Origin: Candidatus Heimdallarchaeota archaeon
Lineage (GTDB): Archaea; Asgardarchaeota; Heimdallarchaeia; Heimdallarchaeales; Heimdallarchaeaceae
DNA: 43,848 nucleotides
Reading direction: 5' to 3'
Assembly (NCBI GenBank): GCA_016840095.1
Contig: JAEOSZ010000034.1
Location: forward strand, 1 to 43,848
Each line of letters begins with the position of its first letter. Position 1 is the stretch's first letter. Shown piece after piece: positions 3,374 to 24,236 of this stretch. The position numbers and the translations under genes were made by a program. The notes beneath the pieces are model-generated. The model saw nothing but the letters and a program-made list of their open reading frames with translations. It was not told the DNA's origin and searched no databases.

Positions 3374-4963
3374 ATGAATATTCGTGATAGAGCTCTATTT
3401 GAAATTAAAGAAAAACTACTATTTTTAGATGAACCTAATAAGAAAATTCTAGATCAAGTTAAACGTGATGTTGCTAAAAAGTATAAACTCAAAGATTTTC
3501 CTAAGAATAGCGAGATTCTAGCTATTTGTGATATTGAGGAGAGAGATTTACTCCTACCGATACTTATGAAGAGGATTGTGCGAACACTATCTGGAGTTGC
3601 AGTTATAGCAGCAATGACCCGTCCTTGGGAATGCCCCCATGGGAAATGCATAATGTGTCCAGGAGGTCCAGATATTGAACGACCTCAGAGCTATACCGGT
3701 TATGAACCTACAACAATGAGGGGTATACGAAACAATTTCGACCCATATCTTCAGGTTATTGACAGAATTAAACAACTTGAGTCTATTGGACATTCAACAG
3801 AGAAAATTGATGCAATTATAATGGGTGGAACTTTCACTAACCAACCCACTGAATATCAGCAATGGTTTATTCAAAGAATGTTTGATGCCTTTAATGAAGT
3901 TGACTCAAAAGATATTCATAAAGCCCATGAAATAAACGAAACAGCTGTTCATAGATGTATAGGTTTGACAGCTGAGACAAGACCTGATCAGATTAATCAA
4001 GAGAAAATTAATCACCTTATTGATTATGGAGTTACTAGATTAGAAGTTGGAGTTCAATCAGTTTTTGACGATGTTCTAGAAAAAATGCAACGTGGTCATG
4101 GAGTAAAAGAGACAACTGAAGCTTTTCAATTCATCAAAGATTCCGGACTCAAAATTACTGCTCACATGATGCCTGGATTACCTGGTTCAACAATAGATAG
4201 AGATATTGAATCTTTCAAGATTTTGTTCAATGATTCTAGATTTCGTCCAGATGAACTAAAAATCTATCCTACAATGGTTATACCTGGAACAAAATTATTT
4301 GACGACTATCAAAATGGTGATTATTCGCCTCTTACAAATGAATCAGCTGCACGATTGATAGCGAAGATAAAAGAATTTGTACCTCCTTATGTTAGAATTA
4401 AGAGGGTTCTTAGAGATATTCCAGCTCATCAAATAGCAGCTGGTCCGAATAAAAGTGATTTGAGATTAGATGTTCAAGCTATTCTTGAAAAAGAAGGGAA
4501 GAAATGTCAGTGTATTCGATGTAGAGAAGTGGGGCATTTAATTTACAAGAAGAATATGCAGATAGATCAGAACAAAATTGAATTAATTGAGAGATCATAT
4601 GAAGCAAGTGGCGGTGTAGATCATTTTCTGTCTTTTGAAGAGACTGAAAACAATGCTTTAATTGGATTTTTGAGATTAAGAGAACTGAGTGAAAATATAA
4701 TTCGTCCAGAGTTTGATAATTCGACAATTGTTGTTAGGGAATTACATGTCTATGGAGAACTTCTTGGATTGAGAGCATTGAAGAAGAGTTATCTCCAGTG
4801 GCAGCATAAAGGTTACGGAAAGGAACTTATGTCAAGAGCTGAAGAAATTGGAAGAGAAAGAGGTAATGCAAAAATCTCAGTAATATCAGGTGTTGGAGTA
4901 AGAGAATATTATCAAAAGCAAGGCTACTCGAAAGATGGTCCTTACATGTCGAAAAAATTGTGA
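3374..4963 (+). CDS. elp3: tRNA uridine(34) acetyltransferase Elp3 (radical SAM + GNAT)
   Basis: RTLSGVAVIA, CPHGKCIMCPGG, QSYTGYEP, ETRPD, KIYPT, RELHVYG, QHKGYG, ISGVGVREYY. Confidence 0.97.
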   Translation: MNIRDRALFEIKEKLLFLDEPNKKILDQVKRDVAKKYKLKDFPKNSEILAICDIEERDLLLPILMKRIVRTLSGVAVIAAMTRPWECPHGKCIMCPGGPDIERPQSYTGYEPTTMRGIRNNFDPYLQVIDRIKQLESIGHSTEKIDAIIMGGTFTNQPTEYQQWFIQRMFDAFNEVDSKDIHKAHEINETAVHRCIGLTAETRPDQINQEKINHLIDYGVTRLEVGVQSVFDDVLEKMQRGHGVKETTEAFQFIKDSGLKITAHMMPGLPGSTIDRDIESFKILFNDSRFRPDELKIYPTMVIPGTKLFDDYQNGDYSPLTNESAARLIAKIKEFVPPYVRIKRVLRDIPAHQIAAGPNKSDLRLDVQAILEKEGKKCQCIRCREVGHLIYKKNMQIDQNKIELIERSYEASGGVDHFLSFEETENNALIGFLRLRELSENIIRPEFDNSTIVVRELHVYGELLGLRALKKSYLQWQHKGYGKELMSRAEEIGRERGNAKISVISGVGVREYYQKQGYSKDGPYMSKKL

Positions 4964-5043
4964 ATCTTTCAATACTTGTTTACAAGGCTAAACTTATAAT
5001 TGCTTCCTCTTCATGGATTTTAGAAAGAATTAAGGGTTGAAAT

Positions 5044-6036
5044 ATGTCTCAGAGCAATAGGTTATCAATTCTATCAAATGTGGAACACATTCTACATGCA
5101 AATGGATATGCTATAACCACATTATCTGCTGGTAGCAAAGCTTGCTTTGATATTATTGCAAAGAAAAGAGATCAATTAATTATTATCAAAGTTGAACCTT
5201 ACATTGACAATTTCAATCGAGACAATTCATATGAACTGAAGAATATTGCTTCTTTTCTAAATGCATCCCCATTAATTATAGGTGAACGAGGAAGACGTTT
5301 CTCTGAAATTGATGATGGTTTAGTTCTCCTTAGATATGGTATCCCTGTTGTTAGCAGTGAAACTTTTACCAATCTAATCTCTCATGGAGTCCCCCCTATA
5401 GTTTATTGCAGTAAAGGTGGCTACTTCGTTCAGATTAACAGGAAAATACTTAGACAAGCTAGAATAGAGAAGAATCTAAGTTATGCAGATTTAGCACATC
5501 TTGTAGGTGTATCTAGAAGAACAATTTATGAATATGAACATTCGATAAACCCAACTCCCACTACAGCTGCAAAATTAGAAGAAATACTCGATTCTCCAAT
5601 TGCTCAAGGAATTAAGATCTTCAACATAGACATTGAGAAAGAAGAAAGACCTCAATTTTCAACAGAAAATCTTTCTGGTTTCAAAGAAGAAATCTCAGGG
5701 ATTCTTGAAGAACTAGGATTTTTTACTCAATTCTGGACTCGCCAATCTCCTTTCGATGCTTTTGGAGAACAAAAGAATCTTGATTTTCATAGTGGAATGA
5801 ATATTTTAGTTTGTGTTGATGAACTTCAGCAGAAAAACGTCGTTGAAAGAGCTATTTTAACACAAGATATAGCCTCCTTAACTAAACGCAGAGCTGTAAT
5901 GATAGTAGAAGATTCTGACGATTCTTTGACTCAGAGTATCCCAACATTTACTGTTGACGAACTTAATCAAATGAAGAAAGCTTTTGATCTAGTTAAGAAT
6001 TGGGTTAAAAAGTATTCAAATATAAAAGAAAGTTAA
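5044..6036 (+). CDS. Archaeal HTH transcriptional regulator (COG1395-like: nuclease-like fold plus Cro/C1 HTH)
   Basis: CFDIIAKK, PLIIGER, RYGIPV, GGYFVQI, LSYADLAHLVGVSRRTIYEYE, PFDA. Confidence 0.88.
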   Translation: MSQSNRLSILSNVEHILHANGYAITTLSAGSKACFDIIAKKRDQLIIIKVEPYIDNFNRDNSYELKNIASFLNASPLIIGERGRRFSEIDDGLVLLRYGIPVVSSETFTNLISHGVPPIVYCSKGGYFVQINRKILRQARIEKNLSYADLAHLVGVSRRTIYEYEHSINPTPTTAAKLEEILDSPIAQGIKIFNIDIEKEERPQFSTENLSGFKEEISGILEELGFFTQFWTRQSPFDAFGEQKNLDFHSGMNILVCVDELQQKNVVERAILTQDIASLTKRRAVMIVEDSDDSLTQSIPTFTVDELNQMKKAFDLVKNWVKKYSNIKES

Positions 6037-6045
6037 GTTGAGCAG

Positions 6046-6729
6046 TTATTTTTGCCCAACAATCATAATATGGTCTTTTTCATAAGGTTCAAGATTTATA
6101 GTTTCAAGAACTTTCAAACCATATGATTCTAGTTTGTCAATTACTTCTTTGAAAATTATTTTAGGGTCCTTAGTAACATCTATGCTTCGAGCTTTAACAG
6201 CTAAGAAGAAGTATCCACCATCTTTGAGATAGGTCTTAATGTTGTTATTTAGAATCTCTGCTTGAAATGGTTGCGCAACATCCTCGTAAACAATATCTAC
6301 TTGTAGAACGGTATTACTATATTCTTCAGGAAATCTTGCATCTGCATGAAGAGGAATAATATTTTTTCTTCTTTCAGCAACAACTATAAGATCACTCATT
6401 GATCTTGCAGAAAACTCCACAGCAAAGATCAGACCTTCATCTCCAACTATATCTGATATGTGAGAGACAGTTGTTCCAGATGCAGCCCCTAAGTATAAGA
6501 TTTTGGTTCCTTTATTTAGAGGAAATGTTTTAAGCTTCTTGAAAATAGCCGCACCTAGTTTACTCTTGTAGGGATCAAAAGTTCTGTATTCAATCCCTTC
6601 TTCTGTCAGTAATCTTTCAGTATAGACTTTCTTTCCTGGGTCAGCATTAACTGTTGCTAACCTTTTGTTTCCGTCTTTTGTTGTTAGCCAATATAGATTT
6701 TCAAATTGGTGTTTTTCTGGGTTTGACAT
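6046..6729 (-). CDS. flpA: Fibrillarin-like rRNA/tRNA 2'-O-methyltransferase
   Basis: SKLGAAI, LYLGAASGTTVSHISD, AVEFS, DVAQP, LEPYEKDH. Confidence 0.97.
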   Translation of the reverse strand: MSNPEKHQFENLYWLTTKDGNKRLATVNADPGKKVYTERLLTEEGIEYRTFDPYKSKLGAAIFKKLKTFPLNKGTKILYLGAASGTTVSHISDIVGDEGLIFAVEFSARSMSDLIVVAERRKNIIPLHADARFPEEYSNTVLQVDIVYEDVAQPFQAEILNNNIKTYLKDGGYFFLAVKARSIDVTKDPKIIFKEVIDKLESYGLKVLETINLEPYEKDHIMIVGQK

Positions 6730-6731
6730 TT

Positions 6732-8021
6732 TTATTTCCTCCTTGGATATTGTTTCTTATATTGAGGTTTTCTTTGACCTCCTTGCTGTCCGCTTCTTTG
6801 TCCACCTTTGTAACTTCCTCGTTTAGGTCTTGGTTGTGATGGTTGAAAGCTTCTATCAACAGGTGGTTTCTTCCCTTCGGGTGGGTTCTTGTATTTTTCT
6901 TTAATCTCAGCAATTTTTTGTTCAACTTCTAATCTTAATTGATCACCAATGAAGTCTCCTTGGAATGCATCTACTCTAGCAGCAATTGTTAATTTTCCTG
7001 CTATAGCTCTTGAGATGTTTCCTCTTTGCCACCAAGAGCAACTATGCAGTTCAGGCATTTGATATATTATTCCATGCTTAGGTGGTTTGGCACCTGTTTT
7101 TAGTGCTCTGAATAAGGCTTTTTCTGCACCTAAAAGTTGAACAGTACTTGCAGGTTTCATAGCAATCTCTCTTAACCCTCCAGCCAATGCTATTAATCTA
7201 GCAGCTATTGCAGATCCAACTACTGCTTTCATGTTTGGAGCAATTCTTCCCATCTCTCTTTCAATCCAATTGTCTAACTTGTCTCGTTCTTCATAGAGAT
7301 CAAGTGTTTTCTGAGTCATTTCTTGTAGAGGAAGTAAATCCTTATCTTCGTAGTGTGCACCCATGGATTTAGATGCTAATTCAACAAGTTTCTTACTTCG
7401 TTCGATGGAAAACCCATAATCTTTGATACTATTTTCTGTGAAGTTTTGTCTAGTTCCAATTTCAGTTATTATTTTACACAAGGTTACATGATTTTGGACT
7501 TCTTTCAGAATTTCTGGAAAATGAACCCCATACCATTCTCTAATTCTGGATGTAAAAAGGTTGGTTGTTTTATCTATATCATCCATGGTTAGAATAGCAT
7601 GTACAACGTTTTTATCTATTCTCTGAGAACTATATGCAATACTTTTCTTTGAAAGACCTATACTCACATCTTTTAGTATTTGATTGTATTCTATTTCATC
7701 TTTGATGTAATTTTTTTGGATAAGTATTTCTGGAATCTGTGAAATTAGATTCTGATAGTTTTCAGATTTGATAATAAGTTCACTCTTTATTCCCTTACTT
7801 CTAGAGAAGTTTTGAATATCTACGGAATTGGTTTCTATTGTTTCCTCTTTTAAGTCAGAATAAATCTTTTCCAACTCATCAGATATATTGTACTTTGATA
7901 AATTGTGAATTTTTTCAGCTATTTTTTCAGGGTTCTTTTCATATGCAGTAAACTCTACTAATTTGTCTTGATTATCGAAGATAAAAAATCCTGAAATATT
8001 AGCTATAATTTTAATTGTCAT
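6732..8021 (-). CDS. nop5: Box C/D RNP protein Nop5 (Nop56/58)
   Basis: RIREWYGVHFPE, APN, PASTVQLLGAEKALF, PPKHGIIYQ; basic tail; adjacent to fibrillarin. Confidence 0.96.
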   Translation of the reverse strand: MTIKIIANISGFFIFDNQDKLVEFTAYEKNPEKIAEKIHNLSKYNISDELEKIYSDLKEETIETNSVDIQNFSRSKGIKSELIIKSENYQNLISQIPEILIQKNYIKDEIEYNQILKDVSIGLSKKSIAYSSQRIDKNVVHAILTMDDIDKTTNLFTSRIREWYGVHFPEILKEVQNHVTLCKIITEIGTRQNFTENSIKDYGFSIERSKKLVELASKSMGAHYEDKDLLPLQEMTQKTLDLYEERDKLDNWIEREMGRIAPNMKAVVGSAIAARLIALAGGLREIAMKPASTVQLLGAEKALFRALKTGAKPPKHGIIYQMPELHSCSWWQRGNISRAIAGKLTIAARVDAFQGDFIGDQLRLEVEQKIAEIKEKYKNPPEGKKPPVDRSFQPSQPRPKRGSYKGGQRSGQQGGQRKPQYKKQYPRRK

Positions 8022-8089
8022 CTATCTTTCACAAAAACTGAAAAATAAGAGATAAAAAAGATTTTGTTGCTAATCTTATTTCTCGAAAG

Positions 8090-8368
8090 TTATGCTAAAG
8101 CAATAATCCTTTCCTTACTTTGAGTTATTAGATCCTTTAGATTGTTATCCATTTCAGGGTTTAGTCCAATTAAAGAAGATCTCATGTCTTCAAAATTAGC
8201 TCTGTTAACAAGAACGGTTCTTTCTAATAACTGTCTTACAGTATATCTAATTGCTCGTGGCTTGGTTTCTATTAAGCTGTCAATTATCTCTTTTTGGGTT
8301 AGTGCTCCCTTATCCTCTAATAATTCAATTACTTCAACTGATCCTTTTGGTAGTCTTTCCCTTTTCAT
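8090..8368 (-). CDS. Small winged-helix (MarR/ArsR-like) DNA-binding protein
   Basis: VIELLEDKGALTQKEII...PRAIRYTVRQLLE...DMR; start moved to ATG 8368 because a GTGAT SD-like motif lies upstream. Confidence 0.8.
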   Translation of the reverse strand: MKRERLPKGSVEVIELLEDKGALTQKEIIDSLIETKPRAIRYTVRQLLERTVLVNRANFEDMRSSLIGLNPEMDNNLKDLITQSKERIIALA

Positions 8369-8501
8369 TCCAATCACTTTCTTTGAGCGTATGTGTAAAT
8401 TTTTTCCACATGTGTATATATTTTGCACAGTATTTAAACCTTTCGGAAAACGCTGTGTAAATGCTTACACACTTGAAATGGAAAAAGTGAGAGAAGAAAG
8501 A

Positions 8502-11408
8502 TTATGTCGGCATTTTTCTAAATCGATGTCTGATTATAGGAATCATGACAATTGAAATTATGACAAAGGCAAGAACCCAATTAACAATCGTTCTTATTGT
8601 ATCTAGTTGATTCCAGAACAAAACATCTACAAAGAATTCAATACGACCATCTGAAGGAGTATAACCTGTGAATCTTAGTGGAATATACAAAGTATGTACT
8701 CCATACTCATCGAATGTAAATTCAATATTGTATTTGCCAGTTGTAACATTATATTCTATTTCAAGATGTTCAAAAGTATGATTAGGATATAGCAAAGTTG
8801 CATTAAGTTTATTATTTTCACTTATGTAAGAGCTGCCGTTTCTAAAATAAACTTCTACATCTAAAGATAGTTGTTTTCTGATAAGCACTCTTTCAGGAAT
8901 ACTTTCTATAAGTAACTCTGGTCTATGTGTATCTATAAGCCAATTGAATGTTTCATTCACTAATTGGGAGTTTTTCTCATCCAGACCAAAAATGTCTTTA
9001 TAAGAATGATCCAATCCAGCTCTAGAAGGTTTTTCTTCATAGGAATCAGATAACAATCCATGATCAGTAAATGGGTAACCCGAACCGAAAACCATTACCC
9101 TTCCACTGTAATACTCTTTTGCTAAAGCTGCATTGAACGTATACTTCTCTTTATCTATTACCGTCTCAAAAGTTGCTAAAACGCTATTGTTTACATTTGG
9201 ATTATCATTAAAACCAACAGGTCTACCCCAGAACATGAAGGAATCTACTTCTAGGATATTGTTTGTTAGATCAACTTGAGCTTCATATGGAACATAATCA
9301 ATAGGTATATTCTCTCCAACACTTGCATTAAACATTCCAAGTAGCTCATCACAAGCATAATAGTTACTAGAAATTAAAGGTTCATTATCAATTGATGTTG
9401 CATCAATAAACCTGATACTATCAATTAGAAATAGGAGAGAACCTCCTCCTTGAACAAAACTATGAATATTATCTAATTCGCTTGATGTAAAATTGAGTTC
9501 TGGATCAGAGATAACTAAAATATCTACTCCTGTAAATGAATAATTACCTTGAAAATGATTGCGTATTCTAAATCCTCTATCTTTCAATATTCGGGTTAGA
9601 TAAGTATGTGTTCCTACAGAAGAAGAAGCATCGAACCATCTATTTTCGGTGTCATTCTCATGTGAGTTATCAAAAAGGATTGTGCCTCCCAGGTATCTCG
9701 TTTGAATTGAGATACTCATTGAAGTGGTTATTCCATCCGTATTCTCAAAAGAAATCGCTGTAATTATTTCTCTCATCGGTGTATCAAGAGGAATTGTGAT
9801 ATTGAAAGCAAAATGGTTCCATCCTGAATAAACAACAATCTGATCTGGTATTTTAATAAACTGTGAATCCCCAATAATAGAAGTATTAATCTGTCCATCA
9901 AATGATGAAATAAGTTTTATGAAAAATTCAGAAGTTTCTCCTTCTACACAAGAATAGAAGTACTCATTTTCAGGAGAGATTCTTTTAGGTAATATTGTAA
10001 AGAGGTCATTAGTACGATAGTTTTCTAGATAATTATATGCAGCTAAAGGATTAATCATTCCATTACCTTGATAGATAATTGGAAAGTTCATATCGATTGC
10101 AGTTTCTAAGATAGCAGCTTCATATTTGTGAGTACTAAGTCCTGGAAAAGCTCCAACTAATAAAGCAAAAACTCCAGCAACAATTGGAGCAGAAACAGAA
10201 GTACCTGATACCCATCTTGATCCTCCTGTTGTAGCATCACTACCCTGTATTGCCACCCCAGGAGCTAATATATCTATTCCTGCAGAGAAATTTCTGTTTA
10301 AACCTTTAGAAGTAAAAATTGCTAAATCATTCATATATTCTGAAGCACCCACAGAGATAACATGATCCCAAATCGCAGGTGCACCAATAGAAGCTCCTGA
10401 AGGACCATAGTTTCCTGCAGATGCAATAACAGGAATATTTTGTCTAGCAGCTTCATAGATTAGTTCTTCAATAGGATCTCCCATAGCTGCAAAAGTAACT
10501 GAGGTTAAGCTTGCAGAAATCAAGTGGGGACCATATAGAATTGCTTCATCAAAACCAATAATAAGCCATTCATCTTTACCGTAACCAGTTTTATCGAGAA
10601 CCTTGATATTGTATAACTTAGCATCAGGTGCAATCCCATAATTATCAGTTATCTCTACTATGCCATCAGCATTTCTATATTTACCGTTGCCAGCCAATAT
10701 TGATGCTATATGAGTCCCATGACCACTCAAGTCATCAGAATCTTCAACAGCTGGAATTAGATTAACATCAATAGCAATTTTATCTTCTTCAGGATAATTT
10801 CTTAATTTATCTAGAGATGGAGCTACAGAGAAATTCAAACCACTGTCTAAAATTGCAATATTGACCCCATAACCTGTAAAATTAGCATTATGAATTGCAT
10901 CTATTTCAAGTGCTTGACGAAGAACACTGAGATCTACAGAACCAGAAAAATCCATATCAACGTTCTGAGGAATGTGAAAGTCATATGTCCCAATAGGGTA
11001 TGTATATTTCACTCTAAAATCTAAGAAATTCAATTGGTGTAGAGCCATCTCTGTATATGAAAAAGAAACAGCAGGTATCGATTTGAAAATTCTATCAATT
11101 GATATGTCATATTTGATGGAATCCTCAATAAATAAGTCTCTTTCTTCAAATGAGAAAAATGATATCATAACTCTCCCATTAAAATCCATCAAATCCTTGT
11201 ATATCTGATTCATAGTCATTGGAGCTATCCATCTTTGAGTCTCAAGAATATTACTAGCCTTTACTACAGAAAAACTAGCTTCGTTGGAATAATTAATTGA
11301 CTTGATTAGTGCAGGATTGTTAATGTGTGTAGATTTTGCTTGTATTAACATAGGTATTGGGAGAATAATAATTGAGACTAAAAAAAAGATGAATAGCTTA
11401 TTTCTCAT
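8502..11408 (-). CDS. Membrane-anchored S8 subtilisin-like serine protease with a GATase-like (DUF4350/ABC_transp_aux-type) domain
   Basis: Signal peptide; triad ILDSG / GHGTH / SGTSVSAP, oxyanion SAGN; ILFDNSH...ILVISDPE...FVQGGGSLL; C-terminal TM plus basic tail. Confidence 0.92.
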   Translation of the reverse strand: MRNKLFIFFLVSIIILPIPMLIQAKSTHINNPALIKSINYSNEASFSVVKASNILETQRWIAPMTMNQIYKDLMDFNGRVMISFFSFEERDLFIEDSIKYDISIDRIFKSIPAVSFSYTEMALHQLNFLDFRVKYTYPIGTYDFHIPQNVDMDFSGSVDLSVLRQALEIDAIHNANFTGYGVNIAILDSGLNFSVAPSLDKLRNYPEEDKIAIDVNLIPAVEDSDDLSGHGTHIASILAGNGKYRNADGIVEITDNYGIAPDAKLYNIKVLDKTGYGKDEWLIIGFDEAILYGPHLISASLTSVTFAAMGDPIEELIYEAARQNIPVIASAGNYGPSGASIGAPAIWDHVISVGASEYMNDLAIFTSKGLNRNFSAGIDILAPGVAIQGSDATTGGSRWVSGTSVSAPIVAGVFALLVGAFPGLSTHKYEAAILETAIDMNFPIIYQGNGMINPLAAYNYLENYRTNDLFTILPKRISPENEYFYSCVEGETSEFFIKLISSFDGQINTSIIGDSQFIKIPDQIVVYSGWNHFAFNITIPLDTPMREIITAISFENTDGITTSMSISIQTRYLGGTILFDNSHENDTENRWFDASSSVGTHTYLTRILKDRGFRIRNHFQGNYSFTGVDILVISDPELNFTSSELDNIHSFVQGGGSLLFLIDSIRFIDATSIDNEPLISSNYYACDELLGMFNASVGENIPIDYVPYEAQVDLTNNILEVDSFMFWGRPVGFNDNPNVNNSVLATFETVIDKEKYTFNAALAKEYYSGRVMVFGSGYPFTDHGLLSDSYEEKPSRAGLDHSYKDIFGLDEKNSQLVNETFNWLIDTHRPELLIESIPERVLIRKQLSLDVEVYFRNGSSYISENNKLNATLLYPNHTFEHLEIEYNVTTGKYNIEFTFDEYGVHTLYIPLRFTGYTPSDGRIEFFVDVLFWNQLDTIRTIVNWVLAFVIISIVMIPIIRHRFRKMPT

Positions 11409-11575
11409 AGGTATAAAATGGTAATGAGACTTTTAGATTTTTCTCTAGTGTTAATCATTTTATCACAATTTTTGTCGGGATATCAAATGCAATGGATTAG
11501 ATTTTGCTTAATCACTATAAAATGGAAACTCTTATATTAGAACAATATGGATGATTTCCAAGGTGAAATAACACA

Positions 11576-11971
11576 ATGCCATACCAATGGTTAAAACGCT
11601 CAAGAAGGAAATTATCAGGTGGTCTTATCAGAAGAGCAGCGTCAAAAAAGAAAAGAGATATGGGTAGATATCCAGCTGAAACTCACATAGGTCCAAGAGT
11701 ACTCAAACCAATTAGAACACGTGGAGGAAATCTCAAATATAGAGTACTTAGAGAAGAGCACGCTAATGTCTTAGATCAAGAGACAGGAATTTCTCAAAAA
11801 GTCAAGATCCTCAATGTCCTTGAAAACAAAGCAAACCGTGAGTATGCAAGAAGAAGAATTATTACAAAAGGCTGTGTTATTGATACAGAACTCGGAAAAG
11901 CAATGGTAACTAGCAGACCCGGTCAACATGGTAATATAAACTGTGTACTTATTGAACGAAAGGAAGAATAG
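11576..11971 (+). CDS. rps8e: 30S ribosomal protein S8e
   Basis: [25 protein letters not shown]; AGGTGA SD. Confidence 0.97.
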
Positions 11972-12017
11972 GTTAATCTTCCAAATCTTTTAAAAACAAT
12001 TTGAGTAAGGCTATATT

Positions 12018-12350
12018 ATGCTACGCAAAAAGCGTTATTTTGTACTCTATCCAGAATATTTTGATAAGAATCTCACTCGTAAACAAGGGAGGAAAATTCC
12101 TAAGAACAAAGCTGTAGCAGATTGTAATCTATCTAAAATAGCATATGCATGCAAATATCTAGAGCTTGATTATGAAATTGAAAAAGATAAGAAATATACA
12201 AAGAATTGGTGGTCGAGTGAAGGTAGAGTTGTAGTTAATCCAGAAGGTATAGCAAGTAAAACTGAGTTAATTCGAAGAATTGCTAATGTATCTAGAAAAC
12301 TCAAGAAAGTTGAGAAATCTGGAGATGCAAAAAAATCAAAGTCCAAATAA
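12018..12350 (+). CDS. srp19: Signal recognition particle protein SRP19
   Basis: LYPEYFDKNLTRKQGRKIPK..AV, KKY...WW...GRV, KTELIR. Confidence 0.93.
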   Translation: MLRKKRYFVLYPEYFDKNLTRKQGRKIPKNKAVADCNLSKIAYACKYLELDYEIEKDKKYTKNWWSSEGRVVVNPEGIASKTELIRRIANVSRKLKKVEKSGDAKKSKSK

Positions 12351-12358
12351 TTTGAGAT

Positions 12359-12703
12359 TTGAAGAAATCAGAGTTGATTAAATTGGAGCGAGAAAGAATA
12401 AAAAAACTCGGTGCTATTGAATTTTTTAGTGACTTAGGAAATGCAATAATTCATGACCCTCCAAAACTCCCAAAAATTGGGTCGAATGTTGTCACCGAAA
12501 GAATGGAACACATTGGACGAATTGCAGACATCTTTGGACCTGTTAAATCACCATATGTTAGTATTAGAATCAAACCACAATACAAAGATATTATTGAGGT
12601 TAATACTACACTTTATGTAATTGATCGAAAACCAGCTAATGTAAGGCAGAGAAAGAAATCATACTCTCATAGGTATAGCAAAACAGCGGAAAAGAGAAGT
12701 TAA
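12359..12703 (+). CDS. gar1: H/ACA RNP protein Gar1
   Basis: PKIG..V......IGRIADIFGPVKSPYVSI; TTG start uncertain. Confidence 0.9.
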   Translation: MKKSELIKLERERIKKLGAIEFFSDLGNAIIHDPPKLPKIGSNVVTERMEHIGRIADIFGPVKSPYVSIRIKPQYKDIIEVNTTLYVIDRKPANVRQRKKSYSHRYSKTAEKRS

Positions 12704-12848
12704 ACGAACCTTACTTTACTTATTATTGTCGTAATAATATGTTATATTTTCTTTTTCAATTTTTCTTGAAATTTCCATTTGAAATTGAACGGTATTAACA
12801 CTTAAATATGCTAATGGAGAAGGTATAATAAGACGATAACATTGCTGT

Positions 12849-13370
12849 TTGAGTTCTTCAATATCAGAAATAAATAGTGAAGAGATTCGACAACAATTCG
12901 CTGGTGTGATGAGAATGATACCTGTTCAAAGAATAAAGACAGAGAAGAATTATAGTATTGCCCTTGGGGATGAAATAATTGAGCTTATTGGGCGAACTCA
13001 GAATAAGAATTTGCTCTATAGAGAAGTGTTAGATATACTTGGAAATCATGAATCTATCGTTCTCAAACTAGATGAACTTCTTTACACAAATCGAATTTTG
13101 AAAATACCTATTCAAGTTGGCAATGTTAAGGACTATGTTCTAACAATACCAAAGAAGAAAGAAACTGGCTGGATGACTATGGTATGTCCATGCTTTACAT
13201 GTGACAGAATTAGTGAATGTGCAGTTAATAATCCAGTTAATCCCGTGTCATGTAGACTTCATAATGAATGGTTGATTGAAGAAGACGATTCGAAGAAGAT
13301 TCAACCATTCAAGTTCATTGAATATGATATCTTGGATGATGATGACACAGTTAAAATTCCCTTGAAGTAA
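12849..13370 (+). CDS. Transcription factor E beta subunit (RPC34/RPC6-like: wHTH plus 4Fe-4S motif)
   Basis: PCFTCDRISECAVNNPVNPVSCRLHNEWL = Cx2Cx5Cx10Cx4EWL, preceded by a wHTH-like segment; next to gar1. Confidence 0.85.
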   Translation: MSSSISEINSEEIRQQFAGVMRMIPVQRIKTEKNYSIALGDEIIELIGRTQNKNLLYREVLDILGNHESIVLKLDELLYTNRILKIPIQVGNVKDYVLTIPKKKETGWMTMVCPCFTCDRISECAVNNPVNPVSCRLHNEWLIEEDDSKKIQPFKFIEYDILDDDDTVKIPLK

Positions 13371-13439
13371 TAAATTAATCGGGAGAGAGGACACAATTTT
13401 TATCAATACTAGATTTTTATAAGATTCAAATAACACTAT

Positions 13440-14048
13440 GTGATTACTTTGAGTGCTGACCCTTATGCAAGAAAAGCTAGAGCAAGTGGATTTAGATCAA
13501 GAGCTGCTTACAAGCTTTTTGAGATAAACGATAAATTTAGTATTTTCAAAAAGGGGCAACAGATTATAGATTTAGGTGCATCTCCAGGAGGATGGTCTCA
13601 AGTAGCATCAAGAAAAGTTGGGAGTAATGGACTAGTTATTGCAGTAGATAAAGCATACCTACAAGAATTCAAAGAGAAAAATATAATCATTGTTTTTGAA
13701 GATATTTTTAAGAAAAATCTGGATGAGATTATAGTTGGTGATTACGGTAAATCAGATGTTTTAATTTCTGATTGTGCTCCGAATATTTCAGGAAATTATG
13801 ATAAAGATCATGCTATACAATCAATGCTAGCTCACCGAGCTTTTGAATTGTCTATCAAAGTTCTCTATATGGGTGGTTCCTTTGTTTGTAAAATATTTCA
13901 AGGAAGTGAAACCCAAGAATTTGTTAAATCTGTTAAGGAACGATTTGGAACAGTAAAGTTATTCAAACCAAAATCATCAAGAAAACAGAGTTCAGAAATT
14001 TATTTGGTAGCTAAAGATTTCATTCCAGAATCAGAATTATTTACTTAA
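13440..14048 (+). CDS. rlmE: 23S rRNA Um2552 2'-O-methyltransferase RlmE/FtsJ
   Basis: FRSRAAYKL, DLGASPGGWSQ, SDCAPN, KIFQG, KPKSSRKQSSEIY. Confidence 0.95.
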   Translation: MITLSADPYARKARASGFRSRAAYKLFEINDKFSIFKKGQQIIDLGASPGGWSQVASRKVGSNGLVIAVDKAYLQEFKEKNIIIVFEDIFKKNLDEIIVGDYGKSDVLISDCAPNISGNYDKDHAIQSMLAHRAFELSIKVLYMGGSFVCKIFQGSETQEFVKSVKERFGTVKLFKPKSSRKQSSEIYLVAKDFIPESELFT

Positions 14049-14057
14049 AGTGATAAA

Positions 14058-15233
14058 ATGACAACAGATAGTTGGAAGAAAGTGAAAGAAGGGAAAACAC
14101 AGTTTGAAATAATTCAAGATGCTGAAAGAATATATGATGCATCTGTTTTTTACAATCCTAAAATGACAATTAACAGAGATATCACCCTTCTGATGATCGA
14201 GACTATTTCAAAATTACAAAACAGAGCGTTGTTTTTTGTAGATGCCCTTGCAGGGACTGGAGTCAGAAGTTTTAGATTATTAAATGAGCTGAGCAAAACT
14301 ACTATAGATTCTTTAATCATTAATGATAAGAATCCAAAAGCGGTAGAGATTATATCAAAAAATATTTCCTCATATGAAGCAAGTGAAAAATTAGAACTTG
14401 TTCACTCTGATGCATTAGATTTATTATATAACATTATCAAAGAAAGGAAACCAATAGATGTAATTGATATAGATCCTTTCGGTTCTCCGATATCTTTTAT
14501 CGAAACATCCCTTAATGCACTCAAACGCAATTCAGGATATCTCTTTGCAACTGCAACAGACCTGCAAGTTTTATGTGGTAAATATTCAGAAGCATGTTTC
14601 AGAATCTATAATTCACATCCAACACGGTATTATCTATGTCACGAAGTTGCTCTAAGAATTCTTATCTATAATGCTATTACTAGTGCAGGTAGACTAGGTC
14701 TCGAAATTGTTCCAATTCTAAGTTATCATTTTGAACATTATTTGAGAGTCAAAGTAAAGATAGAAAAAAGCAAAGAAGCAGCAAATGAACAACACAAGCA
14801 AATTGGATTTGTAATTTTCTGCCCCCATTGTTCTTACCATGGTACTTACACTTTAAACGAAAATTATGCAAAAGCAAATTGTCCAATTTGCAATAATCTT
14901 CTGGAAAAAGCTGGACCACTATGGTTAGGAAAATTATATAGTAAGAAATACTTAATTCAAATGCAAGAGCTTCTAGAGGGATTGGAGCTTCCTAATGAGA
15001 AGAAGATCGCAAAATTACTAGAATTTGTTTTAGGAGAAATCGATAACCTTCCTTTCTTCTATGATTTTCCACTTGTTACCAGGCAATCTGAAAAGAAAGG
15101 TATCAAAATACATGACATAATTGATACACTTCTTGATGCAGGTTTCGAAGCTTCCAGAACTGTTTTTAGTCCTGAAGGATTAAAAACAAATGCTAATTAT
15201 GAGGAGTTAGTTAAATTAATTAAGAAATTCTAA
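14058..15233 (+). CDS. trm1: tRNA (guanine-26-N2)-dimethyltransferase Trm1
   Basis: VFYNPKM..NRD, DALAGTGVR, DIDPFGSP, TATD, CPHC/CPIC, GPLWLG, KTNA. Confidence 0.95.
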   Translation: MTTDSWKKVKEGKTQFEIIQDAERIYDASVFYNPKMTINRDITLLMIETISKLQNRALFFVDALAGTGVRSFRLLNELSKTTIDSLIINDKNPKAVEIISKNISSYEASEKLELVHSDALDLLYNIIKERKPIDVIDIDPFGSPISFIETSLNALKRNSGYLFATATDLQVLCGKYSEACFRIYNSHPTRYYLCHEVALRILIYNAITSAGRLGLEIVPILSYHFEHYLRVKVKIEKSKEAANEQHKQIGFVIFCPHCSYHGTYTLNENYAKANCPICNNLLEKAGPLWLGKLYSKKYLIQMQELLEGLELPNEKKIAKLLEFVLGEIDNLPFFYDFPLVTRQSEKKGIKIHDIIDTLLDAGFEASRTVFSPEGLKTNANYEELVKLIKKF

Positions 15234-15250
15234 GTTGAGTGATGATATAA

Positions 15251-15928
15251 ATGAATAACCAGGATGATATTATAGTTGGAATTGATGAAGCTGGAAGAGG
15301 ACCAGTAATAGGTCCTTTGGTAATCTGTGCTTATGCTTTACCAAGAAAAGATTTGGATCAACTAAGAAAACACAGAGTAAAGGATTCAAAAACACTGTCG
15401 AAGAAAAGAAGATTTGAGTTATATGCAGTACTAGTTTCAATTGCTACTGATTTTCAAACCAAACATCTCTCTGCTGCTGAAATTGATGAATTAAGAAAGA
15501 ATTATACACTGAATGTTATTGAACAAAAAATGATGTTAAAACTGGCTAAAAAAATTAAACCTACTCCTTCAGAGATTTACATTGATGCTGCTGACGTTAA
15601 TGAAAAACGATTTGGAAAGGTGTTTGAAACAGAATTTCCTAAAGCTAAGATAGTATCTAAACATAAAGCAGACATACTATTTCCTATTGTTTCTGCAGCA
15701 TCAATTATAGCAAAGAAACAGAGGGATGATGAAATAGCTAAATTATCAGAAAAAATTGGAGAAAATATAGGTTCAGGGTATCCAGCAGATCCAATCACTA
15801 AGAAGTTTTTGAATAACTATTATAGAAAGCACAAGAAATTCCCTCCATATGTTAGAGAATCGTGGGATACAGCTAAGAAAATAAAAAAGGAATTAAGTGA
15901 AACAAAAAAACTATCTGACTATTTCTAA
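15251..15928 (+). CDS. rnhB: Ribonuclease HII
   Basis: GIDEAGRGPVIGPLV, DSK, IDA, HKAD, VSAASIIAK, GSGYPAD. Confidence 0.97.
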   Translation: MNNQDDIIVGIDEAGRGPVIGPLVICAYALPRKDLDQLRKHRVKDSKTLSKKRRFELYAVLVSIATDFQTKHLSAAEIDELRKNYTLNVIEQKMMLKLAKKIKPTPSEIYIDAADVNEKRFGKVFETEFPKAKIVSKHKADILFPIVSAASIIAKKQRDDEIAKLSEKIGENIGSGYPADPITKKFLNNYYRKHKKFPPYVRESWDTAKKIKKELSETKKLSDYF

Positions 15929-18614: not shown

Positions 18615-19004
18615 TTAGCTAGGTATAAATTTGAATCCATATCCAATTAATCCTTCTTCTCCATTTTTTGATAGAATCCTGAATACTGTTTTGACCTTCA
18701 TCCCATACTTAAGATCTTCAATTTTAGTATCTGTAATTTGTCCTGTTACTCTAGTCCCATCATCCAATTCAATGAGACCTATGATGTATGGAGTGTTAAA
18801 CATCATTACATCAGCTGTTTGTGTCACTCTTGTGAAATGTAGAACCTTACCTGTTTGAGCAAGTTTGATCTCTTCAATATCGTTACTAGAACACTCTGGA
18901 CAAAAATCAGTAACTGGAAAACTCTTCATCTGACATTTATTGCACAAGATTCCTAGAGTAAGATATCTTTGTCTTCTTTCTCTCCATATTTTTGGTGGCT
19001 CCAT
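18615..19004 (-). CDS. DUF35 Zn-ribbon/OB-fold scaffold of the thiolase/HMG-CoA synthase complex
   Basis: CNKC...FP..FCPEC, PYIIGLIEL, GQITD, GMKV..VFR, YGFKF; operon context. Confidence 0.93.
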   Translation of the reverse strand: MEPPKIWRERRQRYLTLGILCNKCQMKSFPVTDFCPECSSNDIEEIKLAQTGKVLHFTRVTQTADVMMFNTPYIIGLIELDDGTRVTGQITDTKIEDLKYGMKVKTVFRILSKNGEEGLIGYGFKFIPS

Positions 19005-20185
19005 TAATTATCATCCTCCATATTAGAAAAAATATTCACCACTACATTGGCACCTGTTCCCATTACATTCTGCGTTAAACCAAATTTTGCTTCATCGACT
19101 TGTCGTTTGTCTGCCTCTCCATTGAGCTGCTGTACGATTTCTATTATTTGAGCAATACCTGTTGCACCGAAAGGATCACCTCTAGCTTTGAGACCCCCAC
19201 TTGTATTCACACTAATTTCAGAATTAGTTTGGGTTTTTCCTTCTGTAGTAGCATGACCTCCCTCTCCTTTTGGAAAGAATCCTAAATCTTCAATCGCTAG
19301 AATTTCCCCAATTGGGAAAGAGTCATGTACTTCTGCTAGACTAATATCTTCTGGAGATTTTTTTGCCATAGAATATGCTTTTTTTGCAGCAGCTTTTGTT
19401 GCTGAAAGAGATGTTAAGGTCTTTCTATGGTGTAAAGCTAGTTTATCTGAAGCTTGAGCTGATCCCACTACTTTGGTTTTAAGCTCTATTTCTGAATGTT
19501 TTCTAACAAATTCCTTAGAAGCAATAATTACTGCAGCACTTCCATCACAATGAGTTGCTGGATCAAATCTACCAATAGGGTCAGAGATTCTTTTGGCATT
19601 AAGGAATCTTTCTAATGAAATCTCTCTCCGATATTGAGCTATTGGATTATTCACACCATTCTTGTGGTTCTTAACTGGAACAGATGCTAATTGTTCTAAT
19701 GTTGTTTTATACTCCTTCATATGAGCCTGAGTCAACCAAGCATAGAGACTTGTCAGTGTTGCTCCTTGTTCAAATTCCCATTGATAATCAATAGTACCTC
19801 CAAGAATTTCTTCTATTGTGCTACTATCAACATAGTCACTAGTCTTTTCAGTACCAAGAACTACTATACAATCAAGAAGACCACTCTTCACAGCCAAATA
19901 AGCTTGATGAAATGCTCCTGCACCACTAGCATTTCCTAAATCAATTTTTGAAATTGTTACATCTAAGTTACACTCTCTAGCAGCTTCAGCTCCGATGAAA
20001 GATTGGAGATTACTGTTAGATAATAATGAACCAAAGTAAAGAGCTTGAATTGAATCTTTGCTTATTTTTGAGTTTTGAATTGCTGAAGTTATTGCTTTTG
20101 TTGCGCTAGAACTAGGCTTCGTACTATATTGTTCTCCAAACTTTGTTATTCCATATCCTATTATGAAAACATCACTGTTACTCAT
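19004..20185 (-). CDS. Archaeal SCP2-type thiolase homologue with substituted catalytic residues
   Basis: GITKFGE, KNHKNG..NP.AQ, DGSAAVI, EVHDSF, VNTSGGLKARGDPFGATG. Confidence 0.9.
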   Translation of the reverse strand: MSNSDVFIIGYGITKFGEQYSTKPSSSATKAITSAIQNSKISKDSIQALYFGSLLSNSNLQSFIGAEAARECNLDVTISKIDLGNASGAGAFHQAYLAVKSGLLDCIVVLGTEKTSDYVDSSTIEEILGGTIDYQWEFEQGATLTSLYAWLTQAHMKEYKTTLEQLASVPVKNHKNGVNNPIAQYRREISLERFLNAKRISDPIGRFDPATHCDGSAAVIIASKEFVRKHSEIELKTKVVGSAQASDKLALHHRKTLTSLSATKAAAKKAYSMAKKSPEDISLAEVHDSFPIGEILAIEDLGFFPKGEGGHATTEGKTQTNSEISVNTSGGLKARGDPFGATGIAQIIEIVQQLNGEADKRQVDEAKFGLTQNVMGTGANVVVNIFSNMEDDN

Positions 20186-20189
20186 TTGA

Positions 20190-21230
20190 TCACCTCAGAA
20201 TTCCTTTGTATCTAGAATAAACACCATAGCTAACTTCCTCCATATTATCAACGTAGTAATCCACTGTTAATGGATAAGTTTTGACACTTTCTATTTCATC
20301 AGTAACTAAGAATGAAAATGAATCACTACCGGCTCCACTGCCATAAGAAGTTATGAATACTCTATCGCCAGGGTTGGAATTATTCAGAATCGTTGATAAT
20401 CCTAACATTGATGAAGCAGAATATGCATTCCCAATTTTCTTACAAATAAGGCTGATATCAACTTGATCTACTGTAAATCCAAGCATCTTTGCTACTGCTA
20501 GTGGAAATTTAGTATTAGGTTGGTGGAATGTAGCAAATTTATAATCTGTTGGTTTAGTTCCGAGTTTCTCCATTAATCCTTTAGAAGCATCCACAATATG
20601 CTGAAAATATGCTGGTTGTCCAGTAAATCTGTTTCCATGAGATGGATATATAGCTCCTTCTCTTCTCCAGAAATCTGGTGTGTCAGTAGTTACTGAATAT
20701 GTACCTTCTAGTTCTGCAACAACTCTTTCTGAACCAATTAAAAATGCAGCACTTCCAGCACCAGCAGTATATTCAAGAGGATCTCTTGGTTTAGCTTGAC
20801 TGTCATCAGAACCTATTGCTAGCCCAAACTTGATCATATTAGATTTGACTAGACCAAAGCACATCTGCATCCCAGCTGTTCCTGCTTTGCATGCAAATTC
20901 CAAATCAGCAGCTGTTAATTCCTTTTCTGAATCTATTGCTGAAGCAACTATTGTTGCTGTAGGTTTAACTGCATAAGGATGCGATTCACTCCCAACATAA
21001 ATAGCTCCAATATCTTGAGGATCCCCCTTCCATCTTTTCAATGCATTTCTTGCAGCTTCGACCGACATCGTAGCTACATCTTCATCAGGCCCTAGTACTG
21101 ATTTAAACTGAACCTGCAATTGCGTTTTAATTTCATTTGGATCTTCACCCCATACCTTTGCTATTTCTTCAACAGCTATTCGGTATTTGGGGATATACGA
21201 ACCATAGGATACTATTCCTACTTTGCTCAT
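20190..21230 (-). CDS. Hydroxymethylglutaryl-CoA synthase (archaeal type)
   Basis: GSESHPYAVKP, DLEFACKAGT, DTPDFWRR, FHQPN, SYGSGAGSD; catalytic E/C/H intact. Confidence 0.96.
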   Translation of the reverse strand: MSKVGIVSYGSYIPKYRIAVEEIAKVWGEDPNEIKTQLQVQFKSVLGPDEDVATMSVEAARNALKRWKGDPQDIGAIYVGSESHPYAVKPTATIVASAIDSEKELTAADLEFACKAGTAGMQMCFGLVKSNMIKFGLAIGSDDSQAKPRDPLEYTAGAGSAAFLIGSERVVAELEGTYSVTTDTPDFWRREGAIYPSHGNRFTGQPAYFQHIVDASKGLMEKLGTKPTDYKFATFHQPNTKFPLAVAKMLGFTVDQVDISLICKKIGNAYSASSMLGLSTILNNSNPGDRVFITSYGSGAGSDSFSFLVTDEIESVKTYPLTVDYYVDNMEEVSYGVYSRYKGILR

Positions 21231-23471: not shown

Positions 23472-23506
23472 CCTTCTTCTCTTTTTCAATGTTAGACCAC
23501 TGATTT

Positions 23507-23514
23507 TTTAAATA
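23507..23514 (+). promoter_or_regulatory. TATA box (TTTAAATA) positioned to start transcription near 23532-23535
   Basis: Archaeal TATA consensus at typical spacing from the 5' end of the structured element. Confidence 0.5.
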
Positions 23515-23531: not shown

Positions 23532-23610
23532 TTGGCCAGAGCTTATCATAGACCTCTCAGAGCAATGTTATGGCTAGCAGTGAAGAGAGCGAGCTCTCTG
23601 GCCAAGAAAT
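23532..23610 (+). ncRNA. Putative single-hairpin box H/ACA guide sRNA with K-turn
   Basis: 10-bp basal stem TTGGCCAGAG/CTCTGGCCAA, internal pocket, upper stem CTCTC/GAGAG, K-turn CAGA...AGTGAAG, AGA box at 23605-23607. Confidence 0.7.
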
Positions 23611-23621
23611 AGATAGGTGAA

Positions 23622-24236
23622 ATGATGAAAATAGTGGTTCTCTCTGGATTACCTTTAAGTGGTAAAACAACTTATGCTAAAATTATCGGACCAAAATATA
23701 ATATGCCTTTATACGAAACAGGCACTGAAGTTCTAGAAGAAGTAACAAGTAGGGGATTTGAATTTACTCCTGAAAATATCAAAAAAGTTACTGATGAATG
23801 TAAGAAAATTTCTGATAGTTTTTTTACTGAAAGATTAATGAAAAAAATAGATAAACTACCAGCTGATGTTCCTGGTGCTTTTATTTCTGGTATTAGAGCT
23901 GTGTCAGAAGTTGAGATACTGAGAAAACATTATGGAGATGATAATGTTTTCGTTATTGCTTTTCACACATCAATGAAAACTAGATTCAAGAGATTAGATA
24001 ATCCAGATCGTATTGAAGAAACAAAAGGTGCAAAAGCAAAAGAAGATGCTTTATTGAGAAATTTTGATAATTTCCTTGCTCGAAATAAAAAAGAACTAGG
24101 CTATGGTGTTGGAGATGTTATTGCTCTAGCTGAATATGTTATGAGCACAGAAAACAGGATCTGGCCATATGTTACAGTAAATGAAAATGAGGCTAGTTTT
24201 GAGACAATTGTCAGAGAGATATTGAATCTTGATTAA
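23622..24236 (+). CDS. UPF0200-like P-loop kinase, probable archaeal dephospho-CoA kinase
   Basis: SGLPLSGKT, GIRA..EVE, TRFKRL, ELGYGVGDVIALAE; AGGTGA SD. Confidence 0.75.
   Translation: MMKIVVLSGLPLSGKTTYAKIIGPKYNMPLYETGTEVLEEVTSRGFEFTPENIKKVTDECKKISDSFFTERLMKKIDKLPADVPGAFISGIRAVSEVEILRKHYGDDNVFVIAFHTSMKTRFKRLDNPDRIEETKGAKAKEDALLRNFDNFLARNKKELGYGVGDVIALAEYVMSTENRIWPYVTVNENEASFETIVREILNLD

Follow-up and report, generated by a model that had tools for sequence, protein, structure and literature searches.

A small RNA gene of one Heimdallarchaeia family as a candidate guide for pseudouridine 1911 in 23S helix 69

The hairpin at positions 23533-23605 (plus strand) of the window, the 43,848-nucleotide stretch of DNA analysed here, is, on comparative evidence, a genuine small RNA gene, so far uncatalogued, that belongs to one Heimdallarchaeia family. 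Judged by its conserved pocket, it is probably an H/ACA-type guide for pseudouridine 1911 of 23S rRNA, one that leaves a three-base spacer in its target and has no conserved ACA box; this assignment is held with moderate confidence.

Distribution and architecture of the hairpin

The element differs from its surroundings in composition: its G+C content is 50%, whereas the spacer has 25% and the genome 33%. It is single-copy in the host genome, so that a reading as a repeat or mobile element is rejected, and a descriptor scan of that genome returned this RNA as the sole match. An Rfam search of the element gave nothing that reached the gathering score or an E-value of any use. DNA searches recovered the RNA in 23 of 24 congeners with a mean identity of 93% across the genus, against 56% ungapped identity in the 40 nt upstream, and its core is identical in AB_125. 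A covariance model added five genomes from three other genera of the same Heimdallarchaeia family, which brings the RNA to 29 of 31 family genomes, upstream of the same kinase-like gene. When covariance models were run over the order and the class, matches outside the family came only at E-values of at least 0.02 and without a like fold. Three pattern searches, directed at this RNA or at canonical U1911 guides in 271-400 Asgard genomes, gave counts outside the family that were about those of reversed controls. Metagenome and viral scans yielded one further family member, with no viral copy of the RNA among the loci screened. One record carrying the RNA is titled Thorarchaeota (L066); by sequence it groups with the Heimdallarchaeia genus, and the title is probably wrong.

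Elsewhere in the window, genes for RNA modification and for the ribosome are clustered at positions 3374-15928 (Elp3, fibrillarin, Nop5, S8e, SRP19, Gar1, FtsJ/RlmE, Trm1, RNase HII). Positions 18615-21230 hold one operon with HMG-CoA synthase, thiolase and DUF35-type genes, upstream of grpE and a hemerythrin-PAS gene.

The preliminary description of this locus had drawn an H/ACA-type RNA of one hairpin that contains a K-turn and has a promoter of its own. That outline is supported by covariation and by the presence in the host genome of all four core proteins: Cbf5 with an intact PUA domain, Nop10, Gar1 (encoded, as had been reported, within the window, at 12359-12703) and L7Ae (recognised by motif only). 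The archaeal TATA box, described at 23507-23514, is present and spans 23505-23514 on the plus strand; it lies 20-21 nt before the start of the lower stem (P1) in 27 of 29 genomes, and the RNA probably starts at 23533-23534. Because the folding energy is no better than that of shuffled sequences (z = -0.64), the case for the hairpin rests on comparison. In an alignment of 17 diverse sequences, 95.6% of the cells are paired, against 37-46% in slid controls. Covariation, proposed earlier as a check on the fold, was found at 7 of 19 pairs, which change on both sides, against 0 of 500 shuffles, a ratio to be read with the kinship of the sequences in mind, as kin are not independent. P1, the pocket strands, the upper stem (P2) and the tandem G.A pairs with their GC/GC closing stem all occupy the positions first assigned to them.

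The lower stem P1 (7-9 bp) is present and covaries. Its 5' strand (23533-23539, plus strand, as are all features of the RNA) forms a 7-bp core that extends to 23541 in the free RNA, with compensatory changes at three pairs; its 3' strand spans 23598-23605, and conservation stops at its end. The pocket is also present. On its 5' side, an AGC followed by a variable insert (23540-23545; 3, 1 or 0 nt according to genus, UUA here) leads into the core UCAUAG (23546-23551), which is invariant in the family. On its 3' side (23592-23597), an A or U at 23592, opposite A23552, precedes GCUCU, also family-invariant. The upper stem covaries; its 5' side (23552-23561) comprises A23552 at the pocket top, C23553-C23558 and the K-turn GA at 23560-23561, of which A23552 and the GA are invariant. 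Its 3' side (23579-23591) opens with the three-nucleotide K-turn bulge, which ends in an invariant U, continues with the tandem GA at 23582-23583 and contains a bulged base at 23590; the K-turn UGA is likewise invariant. The stem thus has 6 bp and one bulge, with 10 nt on the 3' side, and the distance from G23582 to G23591 is 10 nt in 29 of 29 genomes. Active guides show the same upper-stem spacing (PMC4652768), and their upper stems consist of 5-6 bp and carry no more than one bulge (PMC2377435). P2 as originally drawn is present but one pair too short, since C23553-G23591 is held in 16 of 17 aligned sequences. The K-turn closing stem and the apical hairpin with its YAUG loop occupy 23562-23578, where the closing pair varies between C-G, U-A and U-G with pairing kept. 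Within this region, AUGGCU (23570-23575) is family-invariant though mostly loop, an invariance that the pocket model leaves unexplained.

Guides of this type usually end in a conserved ACA tail, which this RNA lacks. The AGA at 23605-23607, earlier read as an ANA box, does occur, but it is not conserved: ANA is found at 23605 in 16 of 29 genomes, and ACA at 23604-23610 in none of the 29. Elsewhere in the A-rich tail, ANA is less frequent (10/29 at 23607, 4/29 at 23608), and the family shows no conserved ACA or ANA at the classic distance of 14-16 nt from the target position. Single-hairpin guides can act without ACA (PMC7075261, PMC11077068); the evidence comes from single hairpins of Haloferax with typical pairing (PMC7075261) and from atypical guides of Sulfolobus (PMC11077068), and the box has been reported as needed for atypical pairings (PMC7075261). 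The conserved block ends at a CCA (23602-23604) inside P1, altered in G044-G046; one Pyrobaculum guide has been described with CCA replacing ANA (PMC4652768), and the CCA of the present RNA might conceivably anchor Cbf5.

Other classes of RNA were considered and rejected. A box C/D sRNA would have a 5' C box, a 3' D box and single-stranded guides of 10-12 nt ahead of D/D'; seen here is a single internal pair of D-like and C-like boxes, the sequence 5' of the D-like box is base-paired and varies between genomes, and Rfam C/D models matched only at E-values of at least 3.6. A SECIS element is rejected on the orientation of the K-turn and because the reading frame of the upstream ORF stays open as far as a TAA stop.

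Complementarity to helix 69 of 23S rRNA

As the host assembly contains no rRNA genes, the rRNA of congeners was used for the target tests. UCAUAG has a single exact complement in 16S and 23S rRNA, at positions 1914-1919 of helix 69, and GCUCU is complementary to positions 1906-1910. The two duplexes, of 6 and 5 bp, flank U1911 and leave U1911-A1912-A1913 unpaired as a UAA spacer, the bipartite complementarity of a classic guide. The AGC block could extend the pairing to 1920-1922, and in a genome with no insert (G044) the 5' guide gives ten contiguous pairs. Among the 1098 uridines of the 16S and 23S rRNA of a relative (G013), U1911 ranks first with all four guide variants, at energies of -19.0 to -27.9 kcal/mol against -13.6 kcal/mol at the next site. 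A strict bipartite match occurs in 3 of 2000 shuffled rRNAs, rising to 113-455 of 2000 (6-23%) when wobble pairs are allowed, and shuffled guides reach an equally good score in 13, 11, 8 and 0 of 150 trials (5-9% for three of the four variants). Strict-complement sites elsewhere in the genome number five. No target was found in 34 tRNAs, and helix 89 of 23S rRNA, considered for the 3' strand, was rejected as the 5' strand misfits.

These single-genome statistics are suggestive without being decisive; further weight comes from two comparative facts. Within the family, the invariant single-stranded bases are the bases that pair with helix 69, and the sole length variation of the 5' strand (0, 1 or 3 nt) falls exactly between the UCAUAG and AGC blocks. 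Across the Asgard archaea, the helix-69 stem GGAGC/GCUUC is found in 16 of 16 family rRNAs and in 0 of 69 other Asgard genomes with a match, where the stem is mostly GGGAG or GGGAC; the guide fits the stem of its own family and mismatches the common Asgard stem at both pocket-top positions. Since helix 69 is invariant within the family, guide-target covariation offers nothing to count.

These features suggest the following course of events. An RNA of about 75 nt with a single hairpin would be transcribed from its own TATA promoter, L7Ae would bind the K-turn, and Cbf5, Nop10 and Gar1 would contact the stems and the pocket. Once the inner base pairs of P1 had opened, the two guide strands would invade helix 69: GCUCU would anneal to 1906-1910 and UCAUAG to 1914-1919, and the pairing could optionally be prolonged to 1920-1922. 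Beneath the upper stem, U1911-A1912-A1913 would remain unpaired, and there Cbf5 could isomerise U1911 to pseudouridine, and the modification would proceed without a conserved ACA box. The RNA would be released from a transcript that probably continues into the kinase gene.

The three-nucleotide spacer may count as an atypical pairing. A spacer of the form UNN combined with a long 5' guide is known from Pab19, which is active in vitro (PMC2377435). A23552 faces A1913, a mismatch at n+2, a position where a mismatch has been treated as unfavourable (PMC4652768), and 13 of 29 genomes have an A23592 that might pair with U1911 itself. Confidence in the guide assignment is held at a moderate level because of these two features and because atypical pairings reportedly require ACA. 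In E. coli, position 1911 carries a modification (PMC2794176); human U3737 is listed as a target of SNORA23 (PMC3511933), its equivalence to 1911 being derived from a table in PMC2794176; no report of pseudouridine 1911 in archaea was found in the literature examined.

The congener rRNA genes themselves contain insertions, of about 31-33 nt near the 3' end of 16S (L022, L024, L025, L027) and of 157, 682 and 871 nt in 23S (L032-L038). Two of the rRNA insertions hold ORFs, one of 185 aa with a LAGLIDADG-like start (G016) and one of 256 aa (G020), and the insertions are probably introns with homing endonucleases. An insert of about 400 nt near the peptidyl-transferase region, seen in G004, is apparently common to the six 23S genes compared.

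Alternative readings and the downstream kinase-like gene

The complementarity that points to a guide would equally suit a non-catalytic RNP that binds helix 69, holding it open or chaperoning it during 50S assembly, with the ACA box and a productive pocket lost. To such a role we assign a small chance. The RNA has no conserved ACA, pairs to both strands of the helix-69 stem and, in the 13 genomes noted above, has an A23592 able to pair with U1911, and yeast snR30 offers a precedent for a non-modifying H/ACA RNA (PMC7991803). Against it, the base found precisely at the top of the pocket is a uridine, and the spacing of the K-turn has been preserved at the length that catalysis requires.

The position of the RNA raises the question of a role in cis. 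A Shine-Dalgarno sequence (23615-23620) and a gene for a 204-aa P-loop nucleotide-kinase-like protein of the AAA_17 type (together 23615-24236, plus strand) always follow directly downstream; the gap from the AGA to the Shine-Dalgarno sequence, given as about 5 nt in the preliminary description, is actually 7 nt. The host genome contains two paralogues of the kinase-like gene, and a kinase paralogue adjoins cbf5 in convergent orientation (G000:C63:16214-17862). The genome also has a separate gene of DUF359, which we take to be the archaeal dephospho-CoA kinase family. Assignment of the downstream gene to the CoA pathway, as first proposed, is unsupported because its protein matches generic AAA_17/P-loop kinase models only, because of the separate DUF359 gene, and because bacterial-type homologues in T. 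kodakarensis are without dephospho-CoA kinase activity (PMC6650551).

Here the stem lies 16-19 nt from the start codon, and one transcript from the promoter of the RNA is therefore likely. The RNA could be imagined to act in cis as the 5' leader of the kinase mRNA, with L7Ae at the K-turn controlling translation or stability; the rRNA match would then be incidental. Its constant place directly upstream of the same gene fits a leader, as does the distance from stem end to start codon, about 13-22 nt in most genomes and too short for a second promoter. This reading is nevertheless improbable: the Shine-Dalgarno sequence lies outside the hairpin, and with the R2 model nothing was found upstream of kinase orthologues in other families. 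The competing GAGAG-CGAG-CTCTC hairpin that had been put forward as a switch has a pair probability of 0.002 and is lost in other genera. The link between RNA and kinase is also not obligatory, because the gap widens to about 43 nt in G041/G042 and is U-rich in G045/G046, and an incidental match would leave the family-specific fit to helix 69 unexplained. The two functions might also be combined, in a guide that kept its lower stem and shed its ACA because the RNA stays at, or is cut from, the 5' end of the kinase mRNA. It would then act both as a helix-69 guide tracking the family-specific stem change and as an L7Ae/Cbf5-bound leader linking kinase expression to ribosome assembly, an idea we regard as speculative and rather unlikely.

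A different uridine of helix 69, U1923 (yeast 2266), is doubtful as a target instead of or besides U1911. In that register, A23592 would be the first base of the 3' guide and the spacer would have two bases; AGCUC pairs with 1918-1922 over 5 bp at -11.9 kcal/mol, and the site ranks fourth for A-type guides. Yeast and human both modify U1923 (PMC2794176), and S. islandicus does so through the short 3' guide of sR148 (PMC11077068). With U at 23592, as in 16 of 29 genomes, the site leaves the top ranks, and the invariant UCAUAG has little role in the U1923 register.

The target first proposed for the RNA, pseudouridine at the equivalent of E. coli U1073 in 16S rRNA, is very improbable, even though CGAGCU pairs perfectly with it over 6 bp in this genome and its closest relative and the unanchored duplex sum of -12.6 kcal/mol approaches the -14.4 kcal/mol of helix 69. 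In the genus, each of the eight 16S genes that include the site carries CCGUGA in place of the assumed YUGUGA, so that the 5' duplex contains an A-C mismatch at a distance of two bases from the pocket top; at the pocket top itself, two guide bases would in addition stay unpaired; the supposed 3' guide CGAGCU occurs in just 2 of 29 genomes; 23590-23592 is the most variable part of the RNA (six variants, CGA in 2 of 29) and carries a further mismatch in 16 of 29; and the site fails to appear in the anchored pocket-top scan. As a side target in this species, U1073 is just conceivable.

Relation to known guides and significance

The predicted helix-69 guide is closest in layout to Pab19 of Pyrococcus abyssi (PMC2377435), with which it shares a single hairpin, a K-turn, a long 5' guide and three unpaired target bases (UNN), a likeness of architecture; unlike the present RNA, Pab19 has an ANA box and targets U1017 of 16S rRNA. 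A K-turn without an ACA box is likewise found in S. islandicus sR109, sR136, sR148 and sR563 (PMC11077068) and in Pyrobaculum guides (PMC4652768), and sR148 also acts on helix 69, at 1917 and the yeast-2266 equivalent (PMC11077068). Whereas these atypical Sulfolobus and Pyrobaculum guides are without a lower stem, the present RNA keeps a covarying P1 of 7-9 bp and would modify a different uridine. In its working it would resemble an archaeal H/ACA guide. Since it has neither the conserved ACA of the classic guides nor the absent or truncated lower stem of the atypical ones, it is filed as a variant of both classes and a member of neither.

In the proposed duplex, positions 1915 and 1917, which we take to be Haloferax 1940 and 1942, are paired to the guide. 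Other archaeal H/ACA motifs directed at helix 69 are the 3' hairpin of Haloferax sR-h45 (PMC7075261) and motif 3 of Pab40/HgcG (PMC2377435), which act on loop uridines (Haloferax 1940/1942; P. abyssi 2016) and, unlike the present RNA, belong to multi-hairpin RNAs with ACA or ANA present. Known archaeal helix-69 guides act on loop uridines or on 1923. The site predicted here, E. coli 1911, is instead that of human SNORA23/ACA23 (28S U3737; PMC3511933) and of bacterial RluD; SNORA23 is a eukaryotic snoRNA hosted in an intron, RluD works as a stand-alone enzyme, and no homology of either to the present RNA is claimed.

The candidate remains one guide of a well-known class, known here from its sequence. 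Heimdallarchaeia are the Asgard class usually placed nearest the eukaryotes, and the prediction would bring pseudouridine 1911, a site that is modified in bacteria and that a human snoRNA targets, into an Asgard class. If true, it would add a third guide architecture, with the lower stem kept and the ACA box lost, of a kind missed by ACA-based searches, and it would provide an example of a guide fitted to an rRNA helix whose sequence is specific to its lineage.
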